Source: Sinorhizobium meliloti (GTDB taxonomy: Bacteria > Pseudomonadota > Alphaproteobacteria > Rhizobiales > Rhizobiaceae). From it: a DNA stretch of 32,000 bases. Below the pieces are notes generated by a model, which was not told the origin of the DNA, did no database searches, and saw only the letters and a program-made list of their open reading frames with translations. Below, in pieces: positions 1,341 through 6,913 of the stretch (position 1 is the stretch's first letter; each line of letters begins with the position of its first letter). Position numbers and translations under genes: made by a program. Location of the stretch: NCBI RefSeq assembly GCF_017876815.1, contig NZ_JAGIOS010000003.1:600001-632000 (forward strand), written 5' to 3'.

Positions 1341-2843
1341 TCATTCAGCGGCACCTGATGCCGCAGGCATTGTCACCTTCTGCCAGGGCGCGTCGTAGAG
1401 GTCCCAGACCGGATTATTGACCGCAAGGTCCATGTCGCGGGCGAAGATCGCGAAGCCGTCATAGCCGTGATACGGTCCGGAATAATCCCAGGAGTGCATC
1501 TGGCGGAATGGGATGCCCATCTTTTGCACCGAGTATTTTTCTTTGATGCCGGAGCCGACGAGATCGGGGCGAATCCTCTCGATGAACTTTTCGAGTTCAT
1601 AGCCGGTGACATCGTCATAGATCAGCGTGCCCTCCTTCACGTAGTGGCCAGTGCGCTGATAATCGTCGTTGTGGGCGAATTCGTAACCGGTCCCTACGAT
1701 CTCCATGCCGAGGTCCTCATAGGCAGTAATAACGTGACGTGGTCGCAAGCCGCCGACGTAAAGCATTACCCTTTTGCCGTGAAGGCGCGGCCAGTACTTG
1801 TCGATCACAGCATCGGTCAAGCCACTGTACTTCCCGATTACCCTCTCCGCCCTTTCCTCGATTTCCGGTCCAAAATGTTTCGCTATCTGGCGCAACGAGG
1901 CTTCGATCTGGGATGGCCCGAAAAAATTGTACTCCATCCAAGGAACACCATACTTTTCCTCCATGTGCCGGCAGATGTAATTCATCGACCGGTAGCAGTG
2001 GATAAGATTTAGCTTTGCGGTCGGCGCGCGCTCTATCTCCGCGAGTGTGGCGTCCCCCGACCAGTTGCCGACCACGTGCAGCCCGATCTCCTCTAGCAGG
2101 ATGCGCGATGCCCAGGCGTCACCGCCGATATTGTAGTCACCGATCACGTTAACGTCGTATCGACCAGCTTCGTACGCGACCTCGGTCGTGTCGAAAACCC
2201 AATCACGTATCGCGTCGTTAGCAATGTGATGTCCGAGGGACTGCGATACACCGCGGAAGCCTTCGCAACGCACCGGCACGATTGTTGTTTTGTACTCCTC
2301 AGCCTTCTTTCGCGAAACCGCCTCGATGTCGTCACCAATCAAGCCGATGGGACATTCCGACTGCACGGTAACACCGTTGTTCAGCGGAAACAGTTCCTCG
2401 ATCTCGTCGATGATCTTTTCTAGCTTCTTGTCACCACCGAAGACGATATCCTTCTCCTGAAAGTCGGAGGTAAACTGCATCGTCACGAAGGCGTCGATGC
2501 CCGTCGTACCGACGTAATAGTTGCGGCGCTGTGACCAGGAATATTGGCCGCAACCGACCGGGCCGTGCGAAATGTGCACCATGTCCTTTATCGGACCCCA
2601 AACAACGCCTTTGGAACCGGCATAGGCGCAGCCGCGGATCGTCATTACGCCCGGGATCGACTTGATGTTCGACTTTACGTCGCACTCGGAAACCACCTGT
2701 CCTTCCTCGGCGGTCTCCTGCTTGTTCCTTGCGACACTCAGGTGCTTTTTACGGCGCTTCGCCGCCTTGTCTGGATAGTGCGATAGCACTTCTTCGATAA
2801 GCTTCTCGTGCGAAGCATCGTCATTCTCATAGTCGAGGCTCAT
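1341..2843 (-). CDS. nifD: Nitrogenase MoFe protein alpha chain NifD
   Basis: 500-aa [40 protein letters not shown]... with typical NifD segments [10 protein letters not shown] and [11 protein letters not shown]. It lies between nifH and nifK. Confidence 0.97.
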
Positions 2844-2942: not shown

Positions 2943-4073
<1,131 letters not shown>

Positions 4074-4384
4074 TCAGAAATCGCTCAACGAATTGCCGCC
4101 GTGCGTGGAAGCCCTTGTGACTGGGCGACGACACGCCGAGTGGCCGCTGGAGAGGCAATGACGCTGTACGGGCTGCTCTGGGTAGCGGCTCTTTTTGCGC
4201 CATCCTCGTGATCGGGAACGACTGAATTTCTGCCGCATACGCTTAGCTGCTGTGAACGCGAGTGCCTTCCCGCCGCGGGGGAACAAAAGAGAGCGGCCCA
4301 AAAAACCGGGCGGCTGATGTCGCAATCTCGCTCCAGGAGCCACCGGACCCGCCTGCTCGAGCGTACTTGCGGGTTGCCGGCATC

Positions 4385-4656
4385 CCTCCGAGTCCGGTGG
4401 CCCTCGCCAGTGCACGCTTCTCGCGGCGGCCTTGGACAGAGGATGGATGTTCATCGTTTCGCGATATTTTGCGACCGTGCGCCTGGCGATATCGACACCT
4501 GTCTTCTTGAGGACGTCGACGATGTCGTCGTCCGAGAGCACCGCTGAGCTCCAGATGATCTATCTGAAGCAGCTGGATTGCCTGCATCAGCTGCGGCGTC
4601 ATAGTCAGCGAATGCGACTGCGACTGTCTTAAATGAAGGCTGAGGGAAGAGGCCAT
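4385..4656 (-). pseudogene. rpoN (sigma-54)-derived remnant: region I fused to an RpoN-box fragment, with the central ~400 residues missing and frameshifts
   Basis: ORF 4243..4656 begins MASSLSLHLRQSQSHSLTMTPQLMQAIQLLQIDHLELS (sigma-54 region I). The overlapping frame (ORF 4074..4541) reads LSDDDIVDVLKKTGVDIARRTVAKYRETMNI (C-terminal RpoN box ARRTVAKYRE). The first frame then resumes PSSVQGRREKRALA (sigma-54 C-terminal tail). The lower boundary is approximate. Confidence 0.7.
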
Positions 4657-4703
4657 GCTAACGCGATGCTCCCGTCAACATTGCCGAAGCCGTGCCCGGT
4701 TAG

Positions 4704-4771
4704 GGCGAGTGCATTTTGGAGATTGTGGACATCCCCTTACCGTCGAACGCGATCTGACGCAGAGCTGCCAT
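4704..4771 (-). pseudogene. nifH 5' fragment (about 23 codons) with a 9-nt deletion inside the Walker A motif
   Basis: ATG 4771..4769 translates [23 protein letters not shown], with the stop at 4702..4700. Nucleotide homology to nifH codons 1-26 ends near 4704. Confidence 0.85.
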
Positions 4772-4850
4772 CTGCTTCCTTTGTTGTTTAAACTAGTTCG
4801 GTTGTTCGGGACAAATGAATGCGCACAGCAGGGGCACCACTGGGTGATCT

Positions 4851-4866
4851 TGCAAAAGTCGTGCCA
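4851..4866 (-). promoter_or_regulatory. Sigma-54 (-24/-12) promoter, orphan copy
   Basis: Reverse complement reads TGGCACGACTTTTGCA, identical core to PnifH. Confidence 0.75.
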
Positions 4867-4949
4867 GGCCGAGTGACCAAATAAAGTTTAGAGCCTTTTT
4901 TCAGATAGTTAGGTCTGGAAATTGACCATATGGTCGAACGAACAACTTG

Positions 4950-4965
4950 TGTCGTTAAGCCGACA
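4950..4965 (-). promoter_or_regulatory. NifA UAS (TGT-N10-ACA) of the orphan promoter copy
   Basis: TGTCGTTAAGCCGACA, at the same relative position as the PnifH UAS. Confidence 0.7.
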
Positions 4966-5439
4966 AAGGTGACGAACATTGTCGTATGCGTGTCGTCACG
5001 CGTCCGGTCGGTAAAGGTCCAAACGATAGAAGGGGCCTGCAATAAGGCCAAGCTCGTGCATTCGCACCAATCACACCCGCGGCAAAATATAAAACGTCCC
5101 ATCACCGAAGTCTCTCTCCAAGCGATCAACACCTGCTGCGCCAGAACCGTGCAGCGGGTTGGCTATTCCGATGGTCTTCAGCCAGCGATAATGAGGAGCG
5201 ACTTGCCCGTCTGGACGACGGCGTTGAGGATCGGGAGGAAGCATCGCCGGCAGGTTGGAGAGCTTCTTCTCGAGCAGGCGCGCATGATGCACGTCCGAAC
5301 AGACGCAGGGGTGTCCCCCAAACATAGCAGCCGCAGACAAAATGTCCGGTTCCACAGGCCGTGTTGGGAGGTGACAATGGGCCGACACGACAAAGACTAA
5401 AACACGCCGGAATCTCCAAGAACGAAATACGTCGATCAC

Positions 5440-5640
5440 ATCAATGCTTTGTGATGACGTCAGTGGTTGGCACGGTTGATGCTGGAAGAGACAGAAACGC
5501 TGGCACACATATGATTGGAGCCTGGAGCGATACCATGCACCTCGTAGTCTGTATAAAGCAGGTGCCGGATTTCTGCGCGAATTCACGTCGCTTCAGTGAC
5601 GAGCACGATCATGCGCCTTGGGAAGGCGCCGCACGCGCCT
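5440..5640 (+). pseudogene. Duplicated fixA leader plus 5' coding fragment, frameshifted after codon 12
   Basis: 5492..5575 aligns with 6013..6097 (GAAACGCTGGCACACAT-TGATTGGAGCCTGGAG...ATGCACCT.GTAGTCTG.AT.AAGCAGGTGCCGGATT). It encodes [12 protein letters not shown], then diverges after a 1-nt insertion. Weaker similarity extends on both sides. Confidence 0.7.
5468..5483 (+). promoter_or_regulatory. Sigma-54-like -24/-12 motif upstream of the fixA fragment; no convincing UAS
   Basis: TGGCACGGTTGATGCT has correct GG-N10-GC spacing. I found no TGT-N10-ACA 80-150 bp upstream. Confidence 0.3.
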
Positions 5641-5804
5641 TGCCTTCCGATCGCGCAGACAATCCCCGTGCGAGTTGACATGCGCTGCCCTCTCAAAAAA
5701 TGCCCGCCATTGCAACTGCGGCATTCATCACCTCCGCGTCCTATACGCAAAGAAACCAGTCGAGCGGATGATTGCCGCAGCCATATGACATTGTCCGTCG
5801 CCTC

Positions 5805-5820
5805 TGTCGGCCCCTCGACA
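5805..5820 (+). promoter_or_regulatory. NifA UAS (TGT-N10-ACA) for PfixA
   Basis: TGTCGGCCCCTCGACA, about 120 bp upstream of the predicted start site. Confidence 0.78.
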
Positions 5821-5908
5821 CAAATTGTTCCTTCAAGCATGCGGCCAATTTCCCGATCTAACTATTTGAAAGAAAGCAATTAGCATTATTTCAGTCACGT
5901 CTGCGACC

Positions 5909-5924
5909 TGGCACGACTTTTGCA
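5909..5924 (+). promoter_or_regulatory. Sigma-54 (-24/-12) promoter of fixABCX
   Basis: TGGCACGACTTTTGCA on the plus strand, 132 nt upstream of the fixA ATG. Confidence 0.9.
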
Positions 5925-6055
5925 CGATCATCCCCCTAGGAAGCGGTAAGAAGACACAATATCGAGCAAGACAGTGAGGACCATTCCGGTTGCTGCTAAC
6001 GCTTGCCAGCAACGGAAACGCTGGCACACATGTGATTGGAGCCTGGAGAGACACC

Positions 6056-6913
6056 ATGCACCTTGTAGTCTGCATCAAGCAGGTGCCGGATTCCGCGCAA
6101 ATACGCGTCCATCCGGTGACCAACACGATCATGCGACAGGGCGTGCCGACCATTATCAACCCCCATGATCTGGCCGCCCTAGAAGAAGCACTGAAGTTGT
6201 GCGACACGTATGGAGGCGAGGTTACCGTGGTGACCATGGGCCCTAAGATGGCCGAGGACGCCCTGCGCAAGGCACTCACGTTTGGCGCACACCGCGCCGT
6301 TCTCTTAACCGACCGCCATTTTGCAGGCTCGGATACGCTCGCGACCTCCTTCGCCCTTGCTCAAGCAATCGCGGAGATCGGCGAGACCTTCGGCACGCCT
6401 GATGTTGTGTTCACCGGCAAGCAGACGATCGACGGCGACACTGCCCAAGTTGGACCTGGAATTGCCAAGCGCCTCGACCTACAGCAGCTCACTTACGTGG
6501 CGAAGATTCTCTCCATTGATGCCGCTTCGCGCGAGATCACTGTTGAGCGGCGCGCGGAAGGCGGCTCGCAGATCCTGAGAACCGGACTACCATGCCTTGT
6601 CACTATGCTGGACGGCGCCGACGCCATCCGTCGCGGGCGTCTCGACGACGCCCTTCGCGCCGCGCGCACCAAGGTCGTCAAGTGGAGTGCGGCGGACGCC
6701 GGCATTGCAGAACCGGCCAACTGTGGCTTGCGAGGATCTCCGACGGTCGTAAAGCGCGTGTTTGCCCCAACTTCCCGCGAACAAAAGGCAAGGCAGATCG
6801 ACACCACAAATAAGCCACTGCGTGAGATCGCGGACGGTCTGATCGCGGCAATCTTTGCCGACCAGCCGGCCTTGAAACACGATCTCGGCTTCCCAGGCAG
6901 CACGGGACAGTAA
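6056..6913 (+). CDS. fixA: Electron transfer flavoprotein beta-subunit-like FixA
   Basis: [48 protein letters not shown]... is the ETF-beta family. I chose ATG 6056 (GGAGAG SD 5 nt upstream) rather than the track start 5990, which has no SD. Confidence 0.93.

Follow-up and report, generated by a model that had tools for sequence, protein, structure and literature searches.

The 32,000-nucleotide (nt) stretch of Sinorhizobium meliloti DNA considered here (contig NZ_JAGIOS010000003.1, forward-strand positions 600,001 to 632,000; hereafter, the window) harbors, between nifH and fixA, a minus-strand relic of rpoN, the gene encoding sigma-54. It is proposed, with a probability that we place at roughly 87%, that this relic is a nonfunctional pseudogene in decay, left by an accessory rpoN ("rpoN2") that once lay immediately upstream of nifH on an ancestral Sinorhizobium/Ensifer symbiosis replicon. 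The relic is homologous to functional rpoN genes, carries disabling lesions, displays lesion polymorphism among strains, and is embedded in a cassette shared with relatives in which the gene is intact. The window is of the S. meliloti pSymA, SM11 type, positions 4400 to 4660 being 100% identical to the SM11 plasmid pSmeSM11c.

Domain content and lesions of the rpoN relic

The relic and the sequences derived from the same gene are arranged as follows:
4657-4699, minus strand: rpoN-derived 5′ untranslated region with a GGGAG ribosome-binding site, aligning with about 42 nt upstream of the chromosomal rpoN ATG
4243-4656, minus strand: ATG-initiated open reading frame (ORF) of 137 amino acids (aa), consisting of 38 region I residues followed by 99 residues of out-of-frame and post-stop read-through
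4543-4656, minus strand: rpoN region I fragment, codons 1 to 38, representing 36 ancestral codons plus a 6-nt insertion
4536-4548, minus strand: deletion junction CTCAGC/G/GTGCTC, with possible GC microhomology of at most 2 nt
4387-4542, minus strand: rpoN C-terminal fragment, with the RpoN box ARRTVAKYR (4461-4487) in the +1 frame
4282-4311, minus strand: weakened hairpin of intrinsic-terminator type together with CUCUCUUUUGUU, a legacy of the accessory rpoN 3′ end
4036-4281, minus strand: spacer from the rpoN 3′ end to the real nifH promoter, belonging to the same ancestral cassette

The first 38 residues of the 137-aa ORF (MASSLSLHLRQSQSHSLTMTPQLMQAIQLLQIDHLELS) were read as sigma-54 region I in the initial annotation, an assignment which is borne out by a match of residues 9 to 38 to positions 2 to 31 (of 46) of the Pfam family Sigma54_AID (E=7.9e-9, 35.7 bits, cut-off 23.8). 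Region I, the activator-interacting domain, is present in truncated form, being cut at ancestral residue 36 and carrying a 2-residue insertion. The segment (A)VLSDDDIVDVLKKTGVDIARRTVAKYRETMNI is encoded in the +1 frame (ORF 4074-4541) and matches positions 122 to 154 (of 160) of Sigma54_DBD (E=2.7e-11), while the tail PSSVQGRREKRALA again follows the frame of region I; the domain match and the translations agree with the jump to the sigma-54 C terminus, with a frame-shifted RpoN box and an in-frame tail, that the same annotation had described. A Pfam search returned no match to Sigma54_CBD in either ORF. The relic, therefore, lacks the core RNA polymerase-binding domain of a functional sigma-54, and in place of a complete in-frame DNA-binding domain (helix-turn-helix and RpoN box) it retains only the Sigma54_DBD portion specified above, in a shifted frame. 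Because there is neither a core-binding domain nor a helix-turn-helix, and because the RpoN box is out of frame, its product cannot be a sigma factor.

The chromosomal rpoN of S. meliloti (L005:1115-2659, in the context lptB-rpoN-raiA-ptsN) served as the reference for mapping these lesions. The record which contains it (CP090106.1, 3.7 Mb, S. meliloti Ak57) is labelled "plasmid pSymB", carries lptB-rpoN-raiA-ptsN-grpE, and is evidently a mislabelled chromosome. At the DNA level, the relic aligns to the chromosomal gene on either side of a gap (blastn E about 5e-35 and 2e-53), and this two-sided match excludes chance similarity. Nucleotides 1 to 108 and 1389 to 1545 of the chromosomal rpoN are retained, together with approximately 25 nt past the stop codon. 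The absent portion, nt 109 to 1388, amounts to 1280 nt (1259 nt in the coordinates of the intact gene on plasmid pMl3, described below), a length not divisible by three. Codons 37 to 463 are consequently missing or disrupted, which accounts for the remainder of region I, for region II and the core-binding domain, and for the bulk of the DNA-binding domain, in line with the loss of the core-binding and most DNA-binding parts noted from the ORF translations at the outset.

Twelve alleles of the relic were aligned, nine located upstream of nifH in S. meliloti and S. medicae and three representing paralogous copies. One deletion junction is common to all of them, paralogous copies included, and the deletion is accordingly old. 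Further lesions comprise a 6-nt insertion in a CAGTCG repeat (4609-4626, minus strand), the loss of 1 bp downstream of the MNI codons (within 4441-4454), and the conversion of the former stop codon to GGA (4387-4389), as a result of which the ORF runs on to 4243. A terminator scan match at 4311-4296 folds with a 6-bp stem in the window, as opposed to a perfect 8-bp GC stem in pMl3. The relic thus combines homology to a functional gene with lesions that disable it, namely, the 1.28-kb deletion, the 1-bp loss, and the mutated stop codon, as is expected of a pseudogene.

Intact and intermediate relatives of the cassette

An intact 501-aa rpoN (L038:1133-2638) is located directly upstream of nifH in Ensifer sp. 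USDA 6670, and an intact 507-aa rpoN (L017:4007-5530) is present on plasmid pMl3 of S. medicae ml49. The encoded proteins possess the activator-interacting, core-binding, and DNA-binding domains, Sigma54_CBD being matched with E=5e-54 to 1.5e-55. Their region I departs further from the canonical sequence than that of the relic does. In USDA 6670, the gene occupies the position equivalent to that of the relic, between a nifH stub and the nifH promoter, and the nifH stub of the window (see below) precedes the rpoN copies of pMl3, USDA 6670, and S. meliloti RCAM1750 as well. Downstream of the USDA 6670 and pMl3 genes lie the same terminator hairpin, a spacer of approximately 400 nt, and a nifH-type promoter, as in the window. 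The alignment of window positions 4544-3742 with USDA 6670 is continuous (85.7% over 832 nt) and extends from the 3′ end of rpoN via the real nifH promoter, P1, into nifH; that of positions 4544-3809 with pMl3 is likewise continuous (84.6% over 765 nt). By the first of these alignments, the USDA 6670 locus is the window locus with its rpoN intact. The window and all intact copies, moreover, share the start MASSLSL, as opposed to MALSASL in the chromosomal rpoN; the first 23 nt of the window ORF are identical to those of pMl3 and RCAM1750 and differ by one base from those of USDA 6670. A scan of the genome collection with a degenerate 18-mer yielded chiefly chance matches, the relevant ones being confined to S. 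medicae USDA1037 and Ensifer sp. USDA 6670.

The accessory rpoN of RCAM1750 (L047:2956-4450), carried on a pSymA-like plasmid, is full length but frameshifted, extending over at least three frames, and it is an intermediate stage of decay. Downstream of it lies a nifH-type promoter with a mutated -24 element (TGCCAC), followed by a gene of the Redoxin/AhpC-TSA family.

The origin of the accessory gene was assessed against prxS-rpoN2 of Rhizobium etli and Mesorhizobium loti, in which a second sigma-54 gene on the symbiosis replicon is activated by NifA and raises the supply of sigma-54 in bacteroids (PMC3538637); S. meliloti has been described as possessing a single rpoN (PMC3538637). The ancestral Sinorhizobium cassette appears to have had the same logic, with a second rpoN placed behind a NifA/sigma-54 promoter. 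The two systems differ, however, in that the Sinorhizobium/Ensifer accessory rpoN is of independent origin and the window copy is dead. Proteins encoded by the intact accessory genes share 75 to 77% identity with Sinorhizobium chromosomal RpoN and 57 to 58% with a plasmid RpoN of Rhizobium leguminosarum, from which it follows that the accessory rpoN arose within Sinorhizobium/Ensifer, independently of prxS-rpoN2. The retained coding parts of the relic are 84 to 86% identical to the chromosomal rpoN, 78 to 88% to the accessory copies, and 70 to 77% to the R. leguminosarum plasmid rpoN; for the region I fragment alone, nucleotide identity is 84% to the chromosomal rpoN versus 78 to 80% to the intact accessory copies. 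No affiliation with the plasmid RpoN2 lineage of Rhizobium and Mesorhizobium was found, and in place of prxS, the peroxiredoxin gene that is located upstream of rpoN2 and co-transcribed with it in R. etli and M. loti, the window carries a duplicated nifH promoter and a nifH stub. The initial view of the relic as a decayed, plasmid-borne second rpoN therefore stands, being supported by the intact cassette relatives, the RCAM1750 intermediate, and the polymorphic lesions, while its alignment with the kind carried on the symbiosis plasmids of other rhizobia, i.e., the prxS-rpoN2 lineage, does not.

Several further features of the relatives were observed. On pMl3, a thioredoxin-family gene is situated approximately 870 bp upstream of rpoN, but it is separate from it. 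Ahead of the intact accessory genes, the N-terminal half of a Crp/FNR gene (FixK-like, cNMP_binding) has been fused to the nifH stub (L038:2611-3592, L047:2564-2902, and L017 approximately 3560-3860), and in USDA 6670, a LuxR/GerE (FixJ-like) fragment lies beyond the Crp/FNR piece. This fusion suggests a further rearrangement and, possibly, a different regulation of the intact rpoN. The pMl3 locus also carries a perfect nifH-type -24/-12 element (L017:6001-6015) ahead of a gene for an NPP1 protein (Pfam E=2.6e-57; L017:6001-7011), a member of the necrosis-inducing protein family, which one would not expect to find behind a NifA-type promoter in a rhizobium.

Variation among alleles of the relic

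The sample available for assessing selection was small, comprising the 12 aligned alleles and 65 plasmid records screened at one site. Of the 12 alleles, only that of the window keeps the original ATG frame open; the remaining eleven stop at codon 9 (an 8-aa ORF) owing to a 1-bp deletion in codon 5, giving MAFSPAFI and then a stop or, in strains B554 and B442D, MAFPPAFI and then a stop. The exact open start region of 55 nt was present in 5 of the 65 plasmid records, i.e., those of SM11, GR4, RU11/001, and two S. kummerowiae assemblies. It was considered that the open start might represent a secondary re-insertion, the paralogue of strain AK83 sharing the 1-bp deletion, but this was rejected, as the intact copies carry the same TCTTCCCTCAGC; the open start is thus ancestral and the 1-bp deletion derived.

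Additional indels segregate within the relic. Region I has lost 5 bp in S. medicae SU277, 8 bp are missing immediately ahead of the RpoN box in three S. medicae strains, and the CAGTCG hexamer (QS in the rpoN frame) varies from 2 to 7 copies. This repeat (4609-4626, minus strand) constitutes a small microsatellite which could serve as a strain marker. ORFs starting from an internal methionine range from 47 to 207 aa among the alleles. Mean pairwise diversity is 0.025 and 0.022 in the two rpoN segments, compared to 0.026 to 0.032 in the adjoining noncoding DNA. With the ATG frame closed, indels segregating, and diversity equal to that of the flanks, no purifying selection on the coding sequence is apparent, and the pattern is that of a neutrally decaying pseudogene, insofar as variation among these alleles can be taken as a guide.

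The exact 137-aa protein was absent from a collection of approximately 15 billion predicted proteins, an alternative-frame ORF of 155 aa has been called in six NCBI contigs, and a 202-aa "hypothetical protein" starting from an internal methionine is annotated over the relic in strain R28. The 155-aa and 202-aa calls are best regarded as annotation noise.

The relic and its downstream nifH-type promoter have also been copied as a unit to other loci, namely, AK83 plasmid pSINME01 (L016 approximately 3280-4460), CCMM B554 (L014), and BIM B-442D (L015), where the promoter and approximately 19 nifH codons are fused to another ORF. In AK83, the fused ORF is followed by genes for aspartate-semialdehyde dehydrogenase, an ATP-grasp protein, and gltB. 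The AK83 copy is less decayed at its 3′ end, where it retains the stop codon and the frame after the MNI codons.

The orphan nifH promoter and the layout of the nifH-fixA region

On the minus strand of the window, nifD, nifH, P1, the spacer, the ORF at 4243-4656, the nifH stub, and a second nifH leader and promoter are encountered in this order. The relevant elements, including the upstream activator sequences (UAS) for NifA, are as follows:
1341-2843, minus strand: nifD
ATG near 3838, minus strand: nifH
3918-3932, minus strand: -24/-12 element of P1, the real nifH promoter
4020-4035, minus strand: NifA UAS of P1
4700-4771, minus strand: nifH 5′ stub ORF of 23 codons (repeat D3), 98% identical to the nifH start
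4772-4851, minus strand: second copy of the nifH leader (direct repeats D5 and D6) with the nifH ribosome-binding site, 81 to 97% identical to the P1 leader
4852-4866, minus strand: orphan -24/-12 sigma-54 element TGGCACGACTTTTGC, an exact match to TGGCAC-N5-TTGC
4950-4965, minus strand: NifA-type UAS (TGT-N10-ACA) of the orphan nifH promoter, TGTCGGCTTAACGACA
5909-5923, plus strand: -24/-12 element of P2, the fixA promoter, followed by fixABCX-nifA-nifB

The orphan promoter thus displays both a -24/-12 element and a NifA UAS of the TGT-N10-ACA type within the expected distance of about 80 to 150 bp upstream. Its -24/-12 element, TGGCACGACTTTTGC, is identical to those of P1 and P2, and its UAS, TGTCGGCTTAACGACA, differs by one base from that of P1 and is spaced as at P1. 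It forms part of a direct duplication lying approximately 930 to 935 bp from P1, and the window contains three such promoter copies overall. The predicted transcription start lies approximately 12 nt past the GC of the -12 element, near 4840 and approximately 184 nt ahead of the ATG at 4656, in close agreement with the distance of about 185 nt put forward beforehand. What had gone unmentioned in the initial annotation is that the duplicated nifH leader and the 23-codon stub (4771-4700) lie between the orphan promoter and the rpoN ATG. Near 4700-4717, the stub runs into the 5′ untranslated region of rpoN.

In the aligned alleles covering this part of the promoter, the orphan UAS and -24/-12 element are invariant across S. 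meliloti and S. medicae. Among nine alleles from S. meliloti and S. medicae, the orphan leader (4773-4849, minus strand) segregates at a single site over 77 nt, compared to 8 sites in 114 nt and 8 in 143 nt in the relic; the spacer, too, has more segregating sites than the leader. This low diversity may reflect constraint on the orphan promoter or on the transcript itself. The differences between the orphan and P1 leaders are themselves conserved.

A degenerate -24/-12 element (TGGCACGGTTGATGC, 5468-5482) is located ahead of a duplicated fixA 5′ stub (window 5468-5615, plus strand), which shows 91% and 78% identity to the beginning of the genuine fixA (6012-6135), and an equivalent fixA stub is found in Ensifer sp. 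USDA 6670 (L038:3837-4286). Given the presence of this stub, the nifH-fixA intergenic region contains relics of three genes, nifH, rpoN, and fixA.

Proposed history of the relic and competing explanations

We infer the following order of events. A Sinorhizobium-type rpoN, with approximately 42 nt of its own 5′ untranslated region, would have become attached to a second copy of the nifH promoter and leader and of roughly the first 25 nifH codons, and this fusion would have placed a second sigma-54 under NifA control, generating a positive loop. In the lineage leading to pSymA of S. meliloti and S. medicae, a single out-of-frame internal deletion of approximately 1.28 kb is presumed to have destroyed rpoN, small indels, repeat expansion, and loss of the stop codon being believed to have followed. 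Transcription from the orphan NifA-type promoter in bacteroids is probable at the present day and would produce an RNA of approximately 550 nt that starts near 4840, crosses the leader, the stub, and the relic, and either stops at the weakened rpoN terminator (4311-4282) or reads on into nifH; the available transcription start site-mapping study sampled conditions without symbiosis (PMC3616915). To such transcription the relic adds nothing specific, and if any part of the locus is functional, it is more likely to be the promoter and leader than the rpoN-derived sequence.

Several observations weigh against this proposal. The GGGAG ribosome-binding site and the ATG have been kept, and in SM11-type strains, the region I frame is open behind an apparently intact NifA-type promoter, such that translation of a region I peptide in these strains is conceivable but unlikely. 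A 20-residue core, MTPQLMQ(A/S)IQLLQ..., is readable from an internal methionine in 11 of the 12 alleles; no Shine-Dalgarno sequence was found ahead of that methionine. The near invariance of the orphan promoter and leader hints that transcription over the relic may matter. Finally, the nifH stub of the intact relatives is preceded by the Crp/FixK-like fragment, with no -24/-12 promoter, so that control of the intact gene by NifA in the past is presumed rather than observed.

Were the SM11-type 137-aa product made, it could compete with full-length sigma-54 in bacteroids, whether for NifA or for the holoenzyme/-12 fork junction, and thereby damp or tune nif expression as a region I micro-protein, a scenario to which the intact UAS and -24/-12 element some 184 nt upstream and the retained rpoN-type translation signals lend themselves but which we consider very unlikely. 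Gallegos, Cannon and Buck reportedly found in 1999 that isolated region I, an engineered fragment of residues 1 to 56, acts in trans in vitro, and a free region I polypeptide would similarly be the sole route to activity for the present ORF; the window, in contrast, specifies 36 to 38 residues that carry an insertion, continue into nonsense sequence, and are confined to a minority of strains. In sigma-54, contact with the activator and inhibition reside mainly in region I, whose functionally important residues span about 11 to 47 (PMC2715252). The fragment ends at residue 36 to 38, so that part of this span is missing, and the 2-residue insertion and variable QS repeat fall within the segment from 11 to 16 that is important for the activator response. 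The other 99 residues are out of frame, arginine rich, and of strain-dependent length, and the protein is missing from the predicted-protein collection. The suggestion, made at the outset, that a region I peptide is produced specifically in symbiosis is likewise unsupported by conservation, considering the closure of the ATG frame at codon 9 in all but one of the aligned alleles, the scarcity of the open start among plasmid records (5/65), and the truncation of region I. It is barely plausible that, in open-start strains of the SM11, GR4, and RU11/001 type, such a polypeptide would act as a NifA/sigma-54 decoy imposing strain-specific negative feedback on nitrogenase; if true, the pseudogene would have been exapted as an anti-sigma-54 micro-protein.

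A different possibility is that the locus has a noncoding role, with the orphan promoter acting as a tandem NifA-dependent promoter from which transcription passes the weakened terminator into nifHDK, its extra UAS raising local NifA occupancy, or an RNA that contains the leader being made from it, and with the rpoN relic as a mere spacer through which the transcript runs. The invariance of the UAS and -24/-12 element and the contrast in segregating sites between leader and relic would fit such a role, as would the degradation of the terminator hairpin relative to that of pMl3 and the copying of the relic-plus-promoter unit to AK83 pSINME01, B554, and B442D. The low diversity, however, derives from few sites and could be explained by gene conversion among the three promoter copies, an Rfam scan of 3700-6200 produced only a chance snoRNA match (E=0.76), and a terminator-like hairpin is still predicted. 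Such a role, which we judge to be rather unlikely, assigns nothing to the rpoN-derived sequence and fits the pseudogene reading too. As regards the source of the relic, a recent partial duplication of the resident chromosomal rpoN into pSymA, without any functional accessory ancestor, is exceedingly improbable. The N-terminal part is slightly nearer to the chromosomal rpoN (84%) than to the accessory copies (78 to 80%), and its 5′ untranslated region includes about 42 nt of chromosomal type, but homology to the chromosome ends approximately 25 nt past the stop codon, while that to the accessory copies extends over more than 400 nt, across terminator, spacer, and promoter, and takes in the nifH stub on the upstream side. 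An identity of 84 to 86% is, furthermore, far below that of a recent copy, and the first seven codons (MASSLSL) are those of the accessory copies rather than of the chromosomal gene. Direct descent from the chromosomal rpoN was rejected on the homology of the flanks to the accessory cassettes.

Comparison with other inactivated or nifH-driven genes

Viewed as a pseudogene of an accessory rpoN, the relic can be compared with an inactive rpoN-like sequence of pathogenic Neisseria that was reportedly described by Laskos et al. in 1998. In both cases, a deletion-inactivated rpoN persists as a recognizable remnant. The Neisseria sequence, however, represents the sole rpoN, with its C-terminal DNA-binding part deleted, whereas the window sequence is an extra copy with a central deletion which has left both termini in place. 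The duplicated promoter also has parallels. Homology between P1 and P2 of S. meliloti is said to have been recognized by Better et al. in 1983, and fusions of a reiterated nifH promoter and nifH 5′ coding sequence to other genes are represented by mos ORF1 of strain L5-30 and the nfe genes of GR4. As in the mos and nfe loci, a duplicated nifH promoter, leader, and first codons were recruited to drive another gene in symbiosis; the driven gene of the window differs in being a sigma factor gene, since deleted internally. For Neisseria, a "truncated rpoN" is also mentioned in PMC2784325.

Implications

A full-text literature search, which some key older papers lay outside of, turned up no account of a remnant rpoN ahead of nifH in S. 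meliloti, and automated annotation pipelines may already flag the relic as a pseudogene. The assignment accounts for an unannotated stretch of approximately 1 kb in the nifH-fixA interval of a much-used model genome and warns annotators not to call the ORFs of 137, 155, and 202 aa located there as proteins. Understanding of sigma-54 function is unchanged by the relic, which is interesting chiefly as evolutionary history, and the intact, unstudied nifH-linked rpoN genes of USDA 6670 and pMl3 would be the more rewarding experimental objects. In conjunction with these intact copies, the relic suggests that the Sinorhizobium/Ensifer symbiosis replicon once had its own nifH-linked sigma-54, which was later lost. 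It would, as such, provide a small but clean example of convergent wiring, in which NifA drives an extra sigma-54, as well as an example of duplicated nifH promoter cassettes capturing and shedding genes.

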